From: Caldivirga maquilingensis IC-167
Lineage (GTDB): Archaea > Thermoproteota > Thermoprotei > Thermoproteales > Thermocladiaceae
Direction of reading: 5' to 3'
Assembly: GCF_000018305.1 (NCBI RefSeq)
Contig: NC_009954.1
Span: forward strand, 570,001-602,000
DNA length: 32,000 nucleotides
This document shows positions 6,792 through 28,698 of this stretch, piece by piece. Under the pieces are notes generated by a model, which was not told where the DNA came from, made no database searches, and saw nothing but the letters and a program-made list of their open reading frames with translations. Both the position numbers and the translations under genes were made by a program. How positions within the stretch are numbered: position 1 is the stretch's first letter; every line of letters begins with the position of its first letter.

Positions 6792-7660
6792 TTTCAGCCT
6801 ATTTACAGCTGAAAGCCTCGCCTTTTCAAGGTGGGGATACAAGGGGAAAACAGTTCTACGCTACGTGCCTAAGGTGCCTCAGGAAGGTAAGCATAAGGAA
6901 GTATAGGGGTGAGTGAGGGTTCCAAAGCCTGTGAAAGTAGAGCCTATAGGTTGTTCTAGCCGTGGACATTAACGAGAGGTATATCTACTTTGGCAACTCA
7001 GCATTGTTAAAAGAGTTGAAACAACTGTGGATAGAGCCATGCACTACAGGTTACTTGCCGAGAAGCTCATGAAGAAGTACTCTCATGGAAAGTACAGACC
7101 ATGGATGCGCAGGAAGAGAATACATGAGCGTATAAGGTACTTCCACAGAAAGGCTAGAAACATTGCCGAGTACTGGGCGAAGAAGACGGCTCTAAAGATA
7201 GATCTCGAAGCTAAGCGAAACAGCTTAGCTGTAGCCAGAGAGGACTTGAAAGGGTTAGTGGAAGCTCTAAGAGAGCTACCAAAGACACACAGAGTAAGAA
7301 TGATAGTGCTCTCCTATAGAAGACTCATCTACTGGATTGACTGGCAGGCAGAAAAGCATGGTGTAAAAGTAGTTGCTGTAGAGCCTAAGGGAACATCGAC
7401 AACGTGCCCTAGGTGCGGAAACAGGCTTGTTGCAAACGGCTATAAGGCATTAAAGTATTCTACATGCGGATTCGAAGACAATAGAGATGTAATAGCCTTG
7501 CTGAATATTTAGAAGAGAATTCTAGTCAAAATGGGAGGAGCTTCTGACCCCCCTCGACTGCCCCACGGATGAAAGATATAGCCCGAATAGATGCGGGGAA
7601 CCAATGAACCACCCTAAAGGAACCCTCACCCTTTAGGGCGGGGAGGAGGTCAGTTCATTA
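6792..7660 (+). mobile_element. decayed IS200/IS605-family (IS1341-like, tnpB-only) element relic
   Basis: It contains a frameshifted and 5'-deleted tnpB. Subterminal hairpins lie at 6792-6814 (tttcagc/gctgaaa) and 7612-7638 (ccctaaagg/cctttaggg). No tnpA is present. Confidence 0.7.
6919..7512 (+). pseudogene. tnpB: tnpB (OrfB, RuvC-like nuclease) pseudogene
   Basis: The RuvC-I motif VLAVDINE (6956-6976) is in frame 2. The preceding VPKPVKVEPIG and the following ORF 7027-7512 are in frame 1; that ORF carries RuvC-II AREDLKGL, zinc finger TSTTCPRCG...STCGF and RuvC-III NRDVIALLNI. About 190 aa of the expected N-terminus are missing and one zinc-finger Cys is lost. The C-terminal tail continues past the stop in another frame (PNRCGEPMNHPKGTLTL*GGEEVS, up to 7654). 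Confidence 0.75.
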
Positions 7661-7819
7661 ATCCACGGCATTAAAAATGCGTAAAGAAGTAATAATAGCA
7701 CTGGGTAAGTCTGGTTTTTAATTTCATGGGGAACCCATAATTAAGCCTCCTTTGATTCTAACCAGGATCCACTTAATTTAATATTGAGGTTAAGCGGGAA
7801 GTAATATTTAGACACTTAA

Positions 7820-8112: not shown

Positions 8113-9627
8113 ATGAAAAACCTTATTAACAACTACTCATTTACTCAACACATGAAGTGGAGGTACCTGGCCTTAATAGCCGTAGCAGCACTGGTGGTTA
8201 GTGTTATTGCGGTTCACTCACTTACCCAGAAACCAACGGCCTCAAGTGACCCTCCAGTTAATTACACTATTACCGTTAACTCATCATTAACCTGCACTGC
8301 AGCCAGCGTCAACATGATGATAGCCCAGGAATTATACATTAAGGTACTCATAATAGCCAACGCCACTGGTGAGTATTCAATAATTAATACTGACCTACTG
8401 AATGCTTCCCAACTCTTAAGTGAGGCTAATGAAACACTTAACCTTGGTGAATGCATTAAGTCCCTCAACTACATCCAGCAGGCAGTGGGCTATGAGGAGG
8501 AGACGTATGTTACCTTAATGAGTAGGCTGAGTCATGAAGGGACTATTAACTACACGTGCCTACAAATAATAGACTTAATTAAGGCTAAGGTTAATGCAGC
8601 TGCGGAGTTAAGCCTAAGACTTGGCAATACGACGGCTTATAATGAGACTCAATCCATACTTAAACTCCTGAACTCAAGTAACTTAACATGCAGTGAACTT
8701 AACAATATAATGAATGAGGCATCAGTATTATTAAACAGCCTTAAGCATGAGGAGGAGGCGGCATTAGCCAATAGCCTTTACGCTAGGGTTAAGGCCCTGA
8801 CGGTTACGTACATTAAGGGTGGTGAGTATGGTCGCCTAGCTCAATTAGCGGCGATACGTAATGGCACTTATGGTTCATTCATTAGGGAGGCCTTAATCAA
8901 TGCACTTAATCAATACGCTAATGAGGTTAATCAAACCATTAATGAATTATTAACTAAGGGTGATTTAATGGGCTTACTATCAATGAACAATACAATTAGT
9001 AAGCTTGGCGAGGTTTTAAACATCTTTAAGTCACATGAATTATACTGCATCAACGCCTCCTACGTATACCTGAATACAACAGTGACCCTGGCTAGGGTAA
9101 GTTCAATATACCGTGAATTAGGGTATAATGCAACCGAATTAAGCCTAATAGGTCGCATTACTTCCCAGGTTAAGTTAAGTTACCTAAACGGTACATTAGG
9201 TTTACTTATCTCAAACATTTATACTGAATACAATGTAAGTGATACATTAAGCATAATGAAGTATATTAATCATACGATTAATAATTATGAAGCGAAAGGC
9301 ATACTTAAATGGGGTAATGGTGGATACATGGTGGGTATTAGGATGCCTAAGAGCATTGCAAGACTCCTTAACCTAACTTTAAGCAACTTCACGTTATCAA
9401 TATATGAGTTAAACCAATGCATATCAACATACTCATTAATTAATAACACAATGATTAACATTATTAGGGTTAAGGGCCTCAACAGTACCCTACTCCTAGA
9501 CCTCGCCCTTAAACTATACTCAATGAGGATTTACTGCCCCATGGCCTTCATGCACGCTAAGTTAGCTAAGCAATCACTGAACTACTTCACCATGTACTTC
9601 AATAATTCAACAGGTGTAAGTCACTAA
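8113..9627 (+). CDS. hypothetical N-terminally anchored extracellular protein, very rich in N-glycosylation sequons
   Basis: Signal-anchor helix YLALIAVAALVVSVIAV. A hand count gives about 25 N-x-S/T sequons after the anchor. The sequence is Asn/Leu-rich and probably helical. No family was recognised. Confidence 0.6.
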   Translation: MKNLINNYSFTQHMKWRYLALIAVAALVVSVIAVHSLTQKPTASSDPPVNYTITVNSSLTCTAASVNMMIAQELYIKVLIIANATGEYSIINTDLLNASQLLSEANETLNLGECIKSLNYIQQAVGYEEETYVTLMSRLSHEGTINYTCLQIIDLIKAKVNAAAELSLRLGNTTAYNETQSILKLLNSSNLTCSELNNIMNEASVLLNSLKHEEEAALANSLYARVKALTVTYIKGGEYGRLAQLAAIRNGTYGSFIREALINALNQYANEVNQTINELLTKGDLMGLLSMNNTISKLGEVLNIFKSHELYCINASYVYLNTTVTLARVSSIYRELGYNATELSLIGRITSQVKLSYLNGTLGLLISNIYTEYNVSDTLSIMKYINHTINNYEAKGILKWGNGGYMVGIRMPKSIARLLNLTLSNFTLSIYELNQCISTYSLINNTMINIIRVKGLNSTLLLDLALKLYSMRIYCPMAFMHAKLAKQSLNYFTMYFNNSTGVSH

Positions 9628-10953: not shown

Positions 10954-11464
10954 CCTTAATCCTATACGCCTTAGCAACCTTAAAATTAGTAACCAACTCA
11001 ATCGCATCCTCCTTGGGTAAAATAACCAAGTCACCCACAGTGGGTTCATTAATCATGCTACCCTTACTGGTCTTAATACTGAAGTAGCTTGAAGTGAACC
11101 TAACTATCATAACCCTACTAGGCGCCTTAAGGGCGCTTGGCTTAAGCAGACGCTCCAAGTCCTCTAATACTGAGACTAATTTAGTCTCCTCAACCATAAG
11201 GTTACCCCTGGGTACATTACCCTCTGAGGCTTGGTCAAGTATCTTAAGTAACCTAGCCCTAAGTAATGCAATCAGCAGGTCCTTAACCATGCCTAAGTAC
11301 GTTAATGTTAATGTATTCTCCAATGCCCCACCAAACTTAACATTACCCACCAGTCTACTAATTAACTCCCTATAGGACCTGTAGGGTAACTTCACAAGCT
11401 CCTTACTCTCCTGCTCCATCTTAACCAGGTCCCTTAATCTATTTAATTCCTGTTGATCCATCAC
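10934..11464 (-). CDS. possible GINS subunit (Gins15/51-like)
   Basis: The N-terminal helical domain has a GINS-like opening (EQESKELVKLPYRSYRELISRL ... RARLLKIL). The C-terminal small beta domain is VMIVRF...GDLVILPKEDAIELVTNFKVAKAY. The call rests on pattern recognition only. Confidence 0.45.
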   Translation of the reverse strand: MMDQQELNRLRDLVKMEQESKELVKLPYRSYRELISRLVGNVKFGGALENTLTLTYLGMVKDLLIALLRARLLKILDQASEGNVPRGNLMVEETKLVSVLEDLERLLKPSALKAPSRVMIVRFTSSYFSIKTSKGSMINEPTVGDLVILPKEDAIELVTNFKVAKAYRIKVRGRSP

Positions 11465-11465
11465 G

Positions 11466-11774
11466 CTACAGGGCTAATTCATCAAGCCTATTTAAAACCT
11501 CACTGTACTTACTAATCCTCCTAAGTTCATTAACCTCACCCTTCTCATACTTATAAACAACATCAGCCTTGCTGGGTTCAAAATCCCATGGAGCAACGAT
11601 TAAATAATCCCCAATCCTAATCCACATCCTCTTCCTATACTTACCTGGAATCCTAGCTATCCTGACGTTACCATCCTCGCAAACAACCTTAACTCTATCA
11701 TCCCCAACTATGTCAGTAACCTTAGCAAGCATCTCCCCCTCATCCGGAACCCTAACCTTAGACTCTGCACTCAC
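11466..11774 (-). CDS. eif1A: translation initiation factor aIF-1A
   Basis: S1/OB-fold signature EGEMLAKVTDIVGDDRVKVVCEDGNVRIARIPGKYRKRMWIRIGDYLIVAPWDF. GTG start. Confidence 0.9.
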   Translation of the reverse strand: MSAESKVRVPDEGEMLAKVTDIVGDDRVKVVCEDGNVRIARIPGKYRKRMWIRIGDYLIVAPWDFEPSKADVVYKYEKGEVNELRRISKYSEVLNRLDELAL

Positions 11775-11834
11775 AGGAACCCAGCCCCAGGACTCTTAAT
11801 AAACCTCCCGTCAATCAATATAATTAACCCTACT

Positions 11835-11866
11835 CTACACGTATACGTGTAGTATACGTATACGTG
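11835..11866. promoter_or_regulatory. tandem palindromes (candidate operator) in a divergent intergenic region
   Basis: An 18-bp perfect palindrome ctacacgtatacgtgtag lies at 11835-11852. A second copy of the 10-bp palindrome acgtatacgt lies at 11856-11865; the first copy is at 11839-11848. Confidence 0.35.
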
Positions 11867-11925
11867 ACTCTGAGAGAGTAACTAAGCAAACTTAATAAGC
11901 ATCAGTTTAATAAGGATCATGAGTA

Positions 11926-12144
11926 GTGGTCATTACGTTCAGGGTAATGGTTCTGGATAATTGCATTGGATGCGGAATATGCTGGGCAATATGCCCTAAG
12001 GGTGTATTAATTGGTAAACTAAGAGCTAAGGCTGTGGTTGCCTCAGAGGAGCAATGCATGGGTTGCTTCTCATGCCAATACAACTGCCCCTTCAATGCAA
12101 TAATCGTTAAGGTTAACCCTAAGGAGGTTAAGAGGTTATCTTAA
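11926..12144 (+). CDS. 2x[4Fe-4S] ferredoxin
   Basis: Two cluster motifs: CIGCGICWAICP and CMGCFSCQYNCP. Confidence 0.8.
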   Translation: MVITFRVMVLDNCIGCGICWAICPKGVLIGKLRAKAVVASEEQCMGCFSCQYNCPFNAIIVKVNPKEVKRLS

Positions 12145-13108
12145 ATCTAATCCAAGTGTTTAATTCACCATTACCCTGAATCTCATAGGCCGTCCCAGCC
12201 TTAACCTGTCCAGCCAGTCCAGTGGCTGGCCAACTGGTGGCTAATTCAATTGAAGCTGCGTAAATCCTACTGAACCACGGGTAATTTAATCCACCACCCA
12301 GTGGTCTCCAAAGCCACATTGACCTGAACACTGATGAATCCCAATTAGCCTCAAGGGTAATACCTAAATCCTCATTAATTAACCTAAACCAATTACCATT
12401 AACATTAGGCACATAAACTAAGTCATTAGTGTTAATACCCCTTGGGAACCTTGATAAATCAATCATCCCCCCATCCTTAGATTTAACCATTGGGAAGAAG
12501 CCCCTGTAACCAGGTTCAAGTATTGATGAATCACCGTTAAGGTACTTATCAACCTCAACCTCAGTACCCTCAGGTAACTCAAGTGTAGTGCATTCGCTCA
12601 GTAAGTCACCGCCGAAGTTTGGGTGATGCAGCCATGAGAATTTTAAATTCTGTCCACTTAAGTTAATTAACCTCTCCTTAACTAAAACCTCATTACTGTT
12701 AATTAACCTAATTCGCCTATACAGTTTAAGCGGATACTTCCTCAAGGTCACAATCATGAGCATTGAGTACTCGTCAACCTCCTCATCATACTCAACCCTC
12801 CATGGTAAGTAAGGAGTCTCATCATGTAGACCAAAGAATACGCCAGCGTACTTTGAGGCATAGCCGGCGTTGGGAATCACCTCAAACCAACCACCGAAGA
12901 AGACTACATTATAGAAGTCCTCTGGTGTTAGGCCTTCTCTAAAATACTCAATGGGTTCAGGATCCTTATGATGGTGAAGCAGCTCATTACCATTGTACCT
13001 AATGCTCCAAATTAAGCCACCGAGTTCAGGGATAACAGTGACCTCAAGTTCATTCCTACTAATCTTAATCACCCTCAACCCATTCACAGACCATTCATCA
13101 TTAATCAC
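12128..13108 (-). CDS. aldose 1-epimerase / mutarotase-like (DUF4432-like) protein
   Basis: N-terminal pattern LEVTVIPELGGLIWSIRYNGNELLH plus WLHHPNFGG are typical of the galactose-mutarotase-like superfamily. Confidence 0.55.
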   Translation of the reverse strand: MINDEWSVNGLRVIKISRNELEVTVIPELGGLIWSIRYNGNELLHHHKDPEPIEYFREGLTPEDFYNVVFFGGWFEVIPNAGYASKYAGVFFGLHDETPYLPWRVEYDEEVDEYSMLMIVTLRKYPLKLYRRIRLINSNEVLVKERLINLSGQNLKFSWLHHPNFGGDLLSECTTLELPEGTEVEVDKYLNGDSSILEPGYRGFFPMVKSKDGGMIDLSRFPRGINTNDLVYVPNVNGNWFRLINEDLGITLEANWDSSVFRSMWLWRPLGGGLNYPWFSRIYAASIELATSWPATGLAGQVKAGTAYEIQGNGELNTWIRFKITS

Positions 13109-13223
13109 ACGGATCCCTAAGTTTAATTCAATACACTATATTTTATAACTATTTATTCAATACCTTGGAGAATAACTATAAACCTAATGAATTTAACTCT
13201 ACATGCTTCTAAAAGCGTGAAGA

Positions 13224-13988
13224 TTAAGGAGTGAAGCGAAGTGTTTCATCATCTAATGGATTGAATTCATCATTAATTATAATGTTCAGCACCCTCTTAA
13301 TTACTCTACTTAAATTCCTGGATAATGTTGATTCACTCACACCCAATTCCTTAGCCAACTGCCTTACCGTTATCCTCCTCGGCGTATCAAATAACCCATT
13401 CTCATGAGCTATCCTTAACAACTTCTCCTCATCACTACTCAACAGTACCTTAACCTTACTCCTCACTATGGCTGCCACCACATCCTCAGGATTCACCGCA
13501 CTCTCCCTTACTCTACCCACCTCACCATTACCACTAATAATCCCTATAAACATGTCAACAGCCTTACTACTCGGGAACAGGAAGACCCAATGCTCAACAC
13601 CACCACTGGTACTGTACCCTATCTCTAAACCACCAAGAATGTGAGCCTTAAACCTAGTGGAGTCCGCGTAATCACCCCTAACAACCATTCTAATTAACCT
13701 AGGGTAAGTGGAGTTAATGGGTTTAACATCATCAATACTTAAGACATTCCTATGACTATTCAAGGTCTTAAGGAAATTCTTAAAGTCAAGCCTACTACCA
13801 ACCCTCACCAGAGCATACTCCACTATGAATGGTGAAGAGGAGTCAACGAAACTGCTTAAAACCCTATACTCAAGGTTAAGTTCAGAAACCTTAACAGTCC
13901 AGTCTGAGTAATGATAGTAATCTAGGTAAACTAACCTAGGTGAGTTAAGTAAACCATTAAGTAACATTAATGCCTCAGTGTCATACAT
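13224..13988 (-). CDS. transcription regulator with C-terminal HTH_10 (bacterio-opsin-activator-type) domain
   Basis: The C-terminal sequence FDTPRRITVRQLAKELGVSESTLSRNLSRVIKRVL matches the HTH_10 pattern. The N-terminal sensor part is unassigned. Confidence 0.6.
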   Translation of the reverse strand: MYDTEALMLLNGLLNSPRLVYLDYYHYSDWTVKVSELNLEYRVLSSFVDSSSPFIVEYALVRVGSRLDFKNFLKTLNSHRNVLSIDDVKPINSTYPRLIRMVVRGDYADSTRFKAHILGGLEIGYSTSGGVEHWVFLFPSSKAVDMFIGIISGNGEVGRVRESAVNPEDVVAAIVRSKVKVLLSSDEEKLLRIAHENGLFDTPRRITVRQLAKELGVSESTLSRNLSRVIKRVLNIIINDEFNPLDDETLRFTP

Positions 13989-14148
13989 AATTTAATTACT
14001 TCTAAGGGTCTCTTATTAATTTTTTACTACAGCATGCGGTTCCTAGGGTATGCATAATAGTATACTGAAAATTAACAAGAAACAGCATCTCTATGCAGTA
14101 TTAATGAGCTAGGTGATTTTATAAGGGAGAGCAATAATAAGTTGAACT

Positions 14149-26626: not shown

Positions 26627-27355
26627 CTACTCAATAGTGTATATTACGTCTAACACTACTCCACTTACCTTACTCCTAATAGCCTTTGCAACATCCTTAC
26701 TGGCAGCCACAAGTATAGATACTCCCACTATGCTTGCCCCTGATTGCCTTATTATGCTTAGTAATGCATCCATTGTTCTCCCTGATCTAACAATATCATC
26801 AATGAGTATTACTGAGTCATCCTTAGTTAGTAATGGCTTAGGTATGTATAAGTTAACCTTCCTGGGCGGTGAGTCAACCATGTAAGTAGCCTCATAGTAC
26901 TGCTCAAAACCGGCATCCATGTACTGCTTAGCTATTGTTAATTCAGCGTTTAAGGCGTATGACGCCGCCATGGCTAATGGTATACCATCCACAGCTGCGG
27001 TAAGTACCTTAGTAACCCTTAACCCAGAGAAGGTCTCGAGAACATGCTTCTCGTAAAGCCTAAGCACCATTGGTTCAAGGACTATGGAACTTAAGTCAAT
27101 GTAATTACCATTAACCTTAATCAACTTAGAGACAACACTCCTAATATCAGCCATGGGTTTAAGAACCTTAACAATACTCTCCGCAACCTTAGCTGAGGGT
27201 AAAACCTCCATGTTAGCGTAACGGCATAGTGTGGATTCAGGTATATTGAGCATGCTTGATAGTTGCTTAAAGGATAGTGAGTAAACCCTCTTAACTGCAT
27301 TAATGTAGAACACGGCATCCAATTGTAGACCAACCTTCTCCCTCCTCCTCATCAT
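26627..27355 (-). CDS. HTH-domain plus phosphoribosyltransferase-domain protein (PyrE-like regulator, COG0856/GfcR type)
   Basis: N-terminal HTH SFKQLSSMLNIPESTLCRYAN. C-terminal type-I PRTase PRPP loop VILIDDIVRSGRTMDAL. Confidence 0.75.
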   Translation of the reverse strand: MMRRREKVGLQLDAVFYINAVKRVYSLSFKQLSSMLNIPESTLCRYANMEVLPSAKVAESIVKVLKPMADIRSVVSKLIKVNGNYIDLSSIVLEPMVLRLYEKHVLETFSGLRVTKVLTAAVDGIPLAMAASYALNAELTIAKQYMDAGFEQYYEATYMVDSPPRKVNLYIPKPLLTKDDSVILIDDIVRSGRTMDALLSIIRQSGASIVGVSILVAASKDVAKAIRSKVSGVVLDVIYTIE

Positions 27356-27398
27356 TAAATCAGTTGAGTAAAGGGATTATTAAACCTAACTGATTTAA
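27355..27398. promoter_or_regulatory. 11-bp perfect inverted repeat bracketing the regulator promoter
   Basis: ttaaatcagtt (27355-27365) and aactgatttaa (27388-27398) are separated by 22 nt. The spacer contains the A/T box attattaaa, about 25 nt upstream of ATG 27355. Confidence 0.35.
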
Positions 27399-27410
27399 TG
27401 GACTGAAATG

Positions 27411-27418
27411 TTTAAAAA
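27411..27418 (+). promoter_or_regulatory. TATA box of the tRNA-fragment gene
   Basis: tttaaaaa lies about 25-30 nt upstream of the start of the GC-rich segment at about 27440. Confidence 0.5.
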
Positions 27419-27440
27419 CCAAAACAAACACCTAATATTG

Positions 27441-27509
27441 GTGATCGGCGCCGGCTGAGGTGGGCCTTTCGAGCCCGTGACCCGGGTTCAAATCCCGGCC
27501 GGGGCACCA
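27441..27509 (+). tRNA. tRNA-Glu(UUC) 3' fragment with GC-rich leader (candidate split-tRNA 3' gene): leader 27441-27460, tRNA-homologous part 27461-27509
   Basis: Anticodon arm tgggc/CTTTCGA/gcccg with anticodon TTC at 27468-27470. 4-nt variable loop tgac. T arm ccggg/TTCAAAT/cccgg. 3' acceptor strand ccggggc, discriminator A, encoded CCA. There is no D arm and no exact 5' acceptor strand upstream. Confidence 0.8.
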
Positions 27510-27729
27510 GATAATGTATCTTTCTGCATCTACATTCTGATTCTAAGAATTAGACCTGAGGATGCAGGATTAATAATTCATGTATACGTTAGTTCGCTTA
27601 CGGGTCAACAATCAGGATTACAGTAAGTGGTTTAAGGTTACTGCTTTAGTGTTGTAACTTATGTATTAATATGCGTATTAATATGCGCATCAGTGTTTAG
27701 GATGGGGATTGCCCTTAATTCCCTTTTTA

Positions 27730-28698
27730 CTATCCAGGCTGGAGTCGCCTTAATTCATTAATTATTCTATACACAACTAATGGGCCCTCCATTGCGAAGC
27801 CTGTCACTAAACCTATTAAGTCAGCTTCAGCTTTAATGCCTTTAATAATATCAATACCCCTCATGAATCCACCTAGGCCAATTATTAAGCCTCCGTAGCC
27901 TATTCTTCGTGTTAATTTAATTAGATTAATTACGATTCCTAGTAATGGTTTACCGCTTAAGCCTCCGTAACCCATGGGTAAGTCAGCCTTTATACTGAGG
28001 GTGTTTGCTATGGTTAGGCCAAATGGGTTATGGTTAATGATTAATTTAATGAGCTTAACCTCATCATTAATACTACTCAATAAGGGTAGTTTAATTACTA
28101 GTTTATCGTAACCCTTAAGTGAATTAAGTAATTCATTAAGCCTATGAGGCTCTGTCCATGATCCACCGTAGGTTGGGCTGCTTACGTTAATTTCAATGAA
28201 ATCCACGCAATCCATGTATGGTGTCAATGAGTCCAGTAGTAGTTTAAACTCAGTCTCACTGAAGCCTGCCACACTAACACCAAGTAGTTTACTCCTCGGC
28301 CACCTGACGCATTCATTGTTTAAAATACCCTTAAGGAAGTCCACTCCCCTTGAGGGTAATCCCATTGCATTAACCATGGCGTCTAACCCAGGGTACCTCC
28401 TCATCCTTGGCTTAGGGTTGCCTCGCCTCGGCTTCAATGTTACGGAACCCACTATGTGGAATCCAATGGGTAACCTACTCATAAGGCTGATTAGTAAGCC
28501 ATCCTTATCTATGCCTGCCCCAATACCTATTGGTGAATCAATAACCCTGTTAAGCAACCTCAACCTATACGGTAATGCACCCGTTAACCTAGTTAAAGTA
28601 CCTATTAACACCTTAACTGGGTAAGTCCTGAGTATGAGGTGGGTAACATCGTGGGTTAAGTCAGGTGGTAAGTAGCCTAGTAGTTTACTGGGTTGCAT
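27730..28698 (-). CDS. pyrD: dihydroorotate dehydrogenase
   Basis: Motifs GIGAGIDKDG, RRGNPKPRMRR, VNAMGLPSRG, NVSSPTYGG (Ser-type catalytic loop) and the C-terminal GLGGFMRG. The start overlaps the pyrE 3' end by 14 nt. Confidence 0.8.
   Translation of the reverse strand: MQPSKLLGYLPPDLTHDVTHLILRTYPVKVLIGTLTRLTGALPYRLRLLNRVIDSPIGIGAGIDKDGLLISLMSRLPIGFHIVGSVTLKPRRGNPKPRMRRYPGLDAMVNAMGLPSRGVDFLKGILNNECVRWPRSKLLGVSVAGFSETEFKLLLDSLTPYMDCVDFIEINVSSPTYGGSWTEPHRLNELLNSLKGYDKLVIKLPLLSSINDEVKLIKLIINHNPFGLTIANTLSIKADLPMGYGGLSGKPLLGIVINLIKLTRRIGYGGLIIGLGGFMRGIDIIKGIKAEADLIGLVTGFAMEGPLVVYRIINELRRLQPG

Follow-up and report, generated by a model that had tools for sequence, protein, structure and literature searches.

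The 3' piece of the probable split tRNA-Glu(UUC) gene of Caldivirga maquilingensis and its counterparts in related lineages

Between two housekeeping genes of Caldivirga maquilingensis lies a tRNA-Glu(UUC) that begins at its anticodon arm. Is it a working part of a tRNA assembled from separate transcripts or the remnant of a gene that was broken? Split tRNA genes are central to the debate over whether tRNAs were separate halves at first or were fragmented later. They are also rare; a count published in 2014 gave about 29 gene pieces in seven hyperthermophilic archaea (PMC4033280). We analyzed the locus within a stretch of 32,000 nucleotides, called the window here, and compared it with the corresponding sites of related lineages. 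The parts of the locus are given below; they were read directly from the sequence, and any further source is named.

26627 to 27355, minus strand: phosphoribosyltransferase (PRTase) gene, the divergent neighbor and syntenic anchor (Pfam PF00156)
27411 to 27418, plus strand: TATA box tttaaaaa, promoter of the fragment
27419 to 27439, plus strand: A/C-rich spacer of 21 nt from the TATA box to the predicted transcription start
27440 to 27459, plus strand: GC-rich leader of 20 nt, GGUGAUCGGCGCCGGCUGAG (GGTGATCGGCGCCGGCTGAG)
27460 to 27506, plus strand: tRNA-Glu(UUC) exon, positions 26 to 73, from G26 to the discriminator A (also Rfam)
27460, plus strand: G26
27461 to 27465 and 27473 to 27477, plus strand: anticodon stem UGGGC/GCCCG
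27466 to 27472, plus strand: anticodon loop CUUUCGA, with U33 and G37 present
27468 to 27470, plus strand: anticodon UUC (the homologue in a more distant relative, L128 below, is tRNA-Glu(ttc) according to ARAGORN)
27478 to 27481, plus strand: variable region of 4 nt
27482 to 27498, plus strand: T arm CCGGG-UUCAAAU-CCCGG
27499 to 27505, plus strand: acceptor 3' strand CCGGGGC
27506, plus strand: discriminator A
27507 to 27509, plus strand: genome-encoded CCA (kept in the relatives L123, L228, and L128 below)
27520 to 27525, plus strand: ctttct, the first pyrimidine/T-rich stretch past the CCA
27730 to 28698, minus strand: pyrD, dihydroorotate dehydrogenase, the downstream neighbor (Pfam PF01180; product 100% identical to the C. 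maquilingensis protein at NCBI)

The sequence-only reading had described a stand-alone 3' fragment running from position 26 to the CCA, with the 5' acceptor strand and the D arm missing, and direct reading bears it out on both counts: the 32 kb of the window contain neither GCCCCGG nor a D arm, whether upstream of the fragment or at any other place, ARAGORN calls no tRNA in them, and no other tRNA is present. Its claim of a promoter at the right distance also stands, since the box at 27411 to 27418 and its spacing are common to four relatives. The GC-rich leader of 20 nt is there as well, but the interval assigned to it, 27441 to 27460, includes G26; the leader proper spans ∼27440 to 27459. 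This leader has 70% G+C, against 40 to 43% in the surrounding region. A BRE-like, purine-rich stretch (∼27404 to 27410) lies just upstream of the TATA box, and the spacing would place the transcription start at ∼27440. The ctttct stretch is a possible transcription stop; a consensus terminator scan gave nothing at 27520 to 27525, and the region is not kept in relatives. A scan for bacterial-type promoters and terminators was uninformative and is not relevant to an archaeon.

The Rfam tRNA model finds the fragment barely over its threshold (29.4 bits; gathering score, 29; E = 0.023), and this alignment is reached only with the D arm deleted and the leader bases GCGCCGG paired to the acceptor 3' strand, with one G-G mismatch. 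Folding of the leader-plus-exon transcript alone is no better than that of shuffled sequences (z = −0.31), a neutral result. Chance does not explain the match: at the syntenic site, the relative L128 has an intact tRNA-Glu(UUC) (62.5 bits), and the fragment shares 48 of 50 bases with its 3' part.

We conclude with high confidence that 27440 to 27509 is the gene for the 3' part of the split (trans-spliced) C. maquilingensis tRNA-Glu(UUC). The split tRNAs of this organism are treated in reviews, two of them written by the discoverers. This tRNA is stated to be split at 25/26 (PMC4090602, Yoshihisa 2014, citing Fujishima et al. 2009) and is listed among four C. maquilingensis split tRNAs made from combined halves (PMC4390854, Kanai 2015, citing the same work); a third review counts ten primary transcripts that give rise to six split or tri-split tRNAs in C. 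maquilingensis (PMC4033280, Fujishima and Kanai 2014). The fragment starts exactly at position 26 and is therefore the 3' piece of the published 25/26 split tRNA. Thus, the locus is almost certainly the gene piece of Fujishima et al. 2009 (PNAS 106:2683), already known and not a novel type of system; that a 5' piece exists and is joined at 25/26 is taken from those reviews. The sequence-only reading, which was made from the letters alone, had put the split 5' of the anticodon stem rather than at 37/38, in agreement with the boundary given in the reviews (PMC4090602), and had named C. maquilingensis as an analogue, which turned out to be the source organism itself, with tRNA-Glu(UUC) on its list of split tRNAs. 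The locus has the makeup of a split gene. It encodes only positions 26 to 76, with a defined internal end and the remainder non-adjacent; at the sequence level it has its own promoter, with the TATA box 21 nt before the leader; and beside the exon is a GC-rich leader under selection across four lineages.

The comparison covers four relatives with a tRNA-Glu(UUC) or a piece of it at this site (percentages are identities of the neighboring protein).

Caldivirga sp. UBA161 (L123): pyrD 83%; same leader and fragment
Logan assembly SRR25522552 (L129): PRTase 81%; same leader and fragment
Caldivirga sp. GCA_049973695.1 (L228): pyrD 73%; same leader and fragment, plus an intron at 37/38
ENA metagenome contig from a more distant relative (L128): PRTase 65%; intact, intron-less tRNA-Glu(UUC)

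PRTase orthologues adjoin the fragment in L123, L129, and L228 and adjoin the intact tRNA in L128. The neighboring proteins of the first three are 73 to 83% identical to those of C. maquilingensis, and the leader is common to these four Caldivirga lineages, with changes only at A27444G (L129), G27457A (L123, L129, and L228), and G27459A (L228). The exon is identical in L123 and, apart from the intron, in L228; in L129 it is identical over the available part, the contig ending in the T arm. Against the intact tRNA-Glu(UUC) of L128, it has two differences, at positions 44 and 45. A TAAAAAC-type box stands at equal distance in L123, L129, and L128, and ttataaac takes its place in L228. The spacer at 27419 to 27439 is homologous to the one before the intact L128 tRNA; it is strongly diverged in L129 (∼8 of 21 positions identical, ∼60% different), while the adjacent leader is kept. 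Past the CCA, the sequence is unalignable in every pair of lineages. The conserved footprint thus runs from the predicted transcription start to the CCA and is that of a functional RNA in which the leader is important, and the comparison fits a leader and exon that are transcribed and functional. Each of the three leader changes is a purine transition, so that pairing with U in a partner strand would persist; such purine-only changes are consistent with, and no proof of, a leader-trailer duplex.

Outside this footprint, the 55 nt from the PRTase start codon to the TATA box (27356 to 27410) hardly vary among C. maquilingensis, UBA161, L129, and L228 and are more conserved than the PRTase coding sequence, which suggests a constrained divergent promoter or a PRTase 5' untranslated region.

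In L228, the orthologous fragment lies at 13991 to 14081 on the minus strand, and the leader there reads GGTGATCGGCGCCGGCTAAA. Its insertion of 21 nt sits at the canonical 37/38 site, cga|tggggtttaacccagaagtga|gcccg, with a boundary ambiguous by one A, and can form a bulge-helix-bulge of its own. This gene piece thus appears to be both split and intron containing, a combination for tRNA-Glu of which no mention was found in the split-tRNA literature surveyed.

The same genome carries a block of ∼3 kb (11087 to 13860) between pyrD and the tRNA fragment that is absent from C. maquilingensis and UBA161. It holds an encapsulin-like gene (Linocin_M18), a Polbeta-nucleotidyltransferase/HepT toxin-antitoxin pair, and a clear homologue of the Sso133 sRNA (12557 to 12620; 54.2 bits against a gathering score of 44). 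The 3' side of the tRNA piece is thus a rearrangement point.

In SRR25522552, the upstream contig ends 30 nt after G26, equivalent to 27489. This sample would then hold another sequence that is identical from G26 on, UUC included, and has a different last leader base; it could be a second copy of the fragment, an intact gene, or a co-occurring strain.

Contig ends also bear on the copy number of the UUC anticodon arm in C. maquilingensis itself. At the ends that were checked, Logan contigs from two read sets of C. maquilingensis are identical to the window. The upstream contig ends at 27498 in both sets (SRR253096 and SRR9435971), and the downstream contig begins at 27480, as seen in SRR9435971 and in SRR9435970, a sibling run. 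Assuming the behavior of a k = 31 assembly (31-mers with 30-nt overlaps), these ends define a repeat unitig at exactly 27469 to 27509 on the plus strand, 41 nt that correspond to tRNA positions 35 to 76 and are bounded by anticodon base 34. A second copy thus shares positions 35 to 76 and differs at base 34 and after the CCA, as would be expected of a tRNA-Glu(CUC) gene; most likely, the second genomic copy is that gene. K-mers containing U34 are unique, which implies, by this reading of the assembly graph, that the genome has no second UUC anticodon arm of this sequence, although an intact copy with a different arm sequence would be missed. GAA codons need a UUC anticodon. With no second UUC arm of this sequence according to the assembly graph, the fragment has to be used.

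These findings weigh against the fallback of the sequence-only reading, a truncated pseudogene, which is now disfavored. The fragment would be dead, its first 25 nt lost by a small deletion or substitution and its GC-rich 20-mer without function. ARAGORN indeed calls no tRNA, the L128 comparison shows that nucleotides 1 to 25 were replaced in situ, and the partner was found neither in the window nor in the fetched loci or the collection scans. But the exon, the CCA, the leader, and the TATA box are nearly invariant over four lineages, in contrast to the diverging spacer and 3' flank; within the fragment, L228 retains an intron of 21 nt at 37/38 that is well formed; and, judged by the contig ends, the genome has no other UUC anticodon arm of this sequence. 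Two reviews also report the mature split tRNA (PMC4090602, PMC4390854). We consider a dead gene very improbable.

[quoted passage not shown] Such integrations leave 3' tRNA repeats (PMC3293823), and 27462 to 27509 matches attP segments in the integrase genes of Aeropyrum globular virus 1, SSV3, SSV4, and SSV-K1 with 93 to 98% identity; in tRNA numbering the viral segments start at 28, only two bases away from where the fragment starts. Synteny, however, largely refutes this origin. What lies upstream is the ancestral tRNA promoter and spacer beside the PRTase gene, as in L128, and is not viral, and a direct repeat would be expected at the opposite end of the element. The neighboring genes are housekeeping genes (PRTase, NTP-transferase, and pyrD/E/I), with no integrase or viral gene over ∼3.5 kb upstream and 2.2 kb downstream and no other tRNA in the window. 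The contig ends point to no second UUC-anticodon copy of this sequence in the genome, and the leader is conserved in four lineages. An attachment-site remnant is therefore most improbable.

Other fuselloviruses also carry tRNA-Glu attP-type segments that match 27462 to 27509.

The least probable alternative, and one to which we give hardly any credence, is a tRNA-Glu(UUC) that lacks a D arm and needs no 5' partner, in which an 8-nt leader would be removed, GCGCCGG (27448 to 27454) would pair with the acceptor 3' strand, and a connector of 5 to 6 nt would replace the D arm: the Rfam tRNA model aligns this way here (29.4 bits) and in L123 (29.7 bits), and GCGCCGG is invariant in four lineages, but the score is at the threshold, the acceptor helix has 6 of 7 pairs with a G3-G70 mismatch, and 27440 to 27447, which would be discarded, is conserved at 7 to 8 of its 8 positions, unlike the spacer before it. 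We know of no archaeal tRNA that lacks the D arm and would hardly expect one in a hyperthermophile; if true, this would be the first armless tRNA both in Archaea and in a hyperthermophile. The 25/26 junction with a 5' fragment described in the literature (PMC4090602) argues against it as well.

As the 3' piece of a split tRNA, the fragment would mature together with a 5' piece encoded elsewhere. The TATA box at 27411 to 27418 would drive a transcript of ∼70 nt that consists of the 20-nt leader and tRNA positions 26 to 76. A separately encoded 5' piece (positions 1 to 25 plus a 3' trailer) would anneal to the leader, the junction would fold into a bulge-helix-bulge motif, the archaeal splicing endonuclease would cut after U25 and before G26, and an RNA ligase would join the exons into the full tRNA. 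We infer that the leader pairs with the trailer of an unlinked 5' fragment, its last two bases (27458 and 27459) lying in a bulge. Assuming an exon 1 like that of L128, the predicted pairing starts with a helix of AAGG (20b to 23) with CCUU (31 to 34), followed by a predicted bulge of 3 nt (A24-U25 and the first trailer base), a predicted central helix of 4 bp between the trailer bases YCCA and U27 to G30, a second bulge on the 3' splice site side (27458, 27459, and G26), and a long helix of leader bases 27440 to 27457 with the trailer. The trailer would read N-YCCA-YAGCCGGCGCCGATCACC, and the 5' fragment, GCCCCGG plus a D arm, would be close to GCCCCGGTCGTCCAGCCCGGTCAAGGAT. With a model partner built from L128 exon 1 and a hypothetical trailer, so that only the exon side is real, the hBHBh' structure is the minimum-energy fold at 85°C.

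We looked for this partner in several collections. The 32-kb window has no complement of the leader and no suitable acceptor start of the GYYYYGGY type, and neither the window nor any fetched Caldivirga locus has a 5' fragment with a trailer complementary to 27440 to 27457. A scan of genome contigs with GCCCCGGTNNNNNAN{8,36}CGGCGCCGATC, a GC-rich pattern, gave GC-rich bacterial chance matches and no Caldivirga among the at least 120 matches listed. A metagenome scan with GCCCCGGTCGTCCAGN{11,30}CGGCGCCG returned 55 matches, all GC-rich bacterial and without tRNA context, and two scans of viral collections for the 5' fragment gave 0 matches and 40 chance matches, respectively. A text search of the literature for the leader, trailer, or exon sequences returned nothing relevant.

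How the split arose is best seen in L128. Its intact, intron-less tRNA-Glu(UUC) (62.5 bits; Glu-ttc according to ARAGORN) lies ∼85 nt from the PRTase start, behind a homologous TAAAAAC box and A/C-rich spacer. An intact syntenic gene behind a homologous promoter indicates that the split is derived. Homology between C. maquilingensis and L128 stops at about tRNA position +1 and resumes at G26; thus, nucleotides 1 to 25 (28 bases) were swapped in place for the 20-nt leader, with the ancestral promoter kept. By this comparison, the TATA box at 27411 to 27418 is the ancestral tRNA promoter, and the fragment is the original gene, still at its old site, with nucleotides 1 to 25 replaced. The series from intact (L128) to split (C. 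maquilingensis, UBA161, and L129) to split with an additional intron (L228) indicates that the split originated at this site, either in the Caldivirga lineage or shortly before it. The syntenic sites of Thermocladium (L127) and Vulcanisaeta distributa (L130) have no tRNA and are uninformative about an ancestral intron at 25/26. The locus is a clean, datable case of a derived split that kept the ancestral promoter, and for tRNA-Glu(UUC) it speaks in favor of the "split-late" view. The series itself is a modest gain, made up of an intact gene in a relative, a leader conserved in four lineages, and one extra intron.

We also asked whether the leader is a decayed copy of tRNA nucleotides 1 to 25; the best ungapped match covers 11 of 20 positions (P = 0.11 by shuffling), which gives this idea no support.

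One idea links splitting to viral integration, either as a protection against it or as its result. The split boundary at this locus falls within two bases of the attP core of tRNA-Glu viruses, which hints at such a link.

Elsewhere in the window, in the gap between the open reading frames at 7027 to 7512 and 8113 to 9627, there is a subthreshold match to HgcC, a family of archaeal GC-rich noncoding RNAs (7534 to 7666, plus strand; 33.7 bits; gathering score, 50; E = 2.5e-4 over the window as a whole). Alignment is good in the 3' part of the model (CCCUUUAGGG...GGAGGAGGUCAG), and the match is possibly an unannotated small RNA.

Among known systems, the split tRNAs of Nanoarchaeum equitans (Randau et al. 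2005) are of the same type, with separate genes for the pieces, GC-rich complementary leader and trailer sequences, and promoters of their own (PMC4033280, PMC4390854). In N. equitans the junction is a bulge-helix-bulge cut by the splicing endonuclease, a structure that is predicted for the locus studied here. The N. equitans tRNA-Glu(UUC/CUC), however, is split at 37/38 and has its anticodon on the 5' half, whereas the split here is at 25/26 and the anticodon is on the 3' piece. One 3' half of N. equitans serves two isoacceptors; the Glu sequence shared in C. maquilingensis (positions 35 to 76) is a genomic repeat and not a shared transcript. Other archaeal split tRNAs resemble this locus in that they were shown to be derived by means of intact orthologues in relatives, have a promoter 20 to 25 nt upstream of a GC-rich leader, and give low tRNAscan or Infernal scores for their fragments. 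They differ in being split at 37/38 or 30/31 with halves 0.1 to 4.5 kb apart, whereas no partner lies in the window here, which covers 27 kb upstream and 4.5 kb downstream of the fragment. The SSV-type tRNA-Glu attachment sites share the same tRNA stretch, from ∼position 28 to the 3' end, as the attP/attB core; unlike them, the locus has a native promoter upstream and lacks an integrase, an element, and a direct-repeat partner.

Closest are the split tRNAs of C. maquilingensis itself. The tri-split tRNA-Gly is encoded by the same genome and has one of its junctions at 25/26 as well (PMC4090602); it is assembled from three transcripts with swappable anticodon pieces, whereas tRNA-Glu(UUC) is made from two (PMC4033280, PMC4390854). 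From the published C. maquilingensis tRNA-Glu(UUC), with the same organism, the same isoacceptor, the same 25/26 split, and a GC-rich leader behind its own promoter, nothing essential differs. What our comparison adds to the literature is the conservation of the gene piece in three further Caldivirga lineages, an intact orthologue at the same locus, and an extra 37/38 intron in one lineage.
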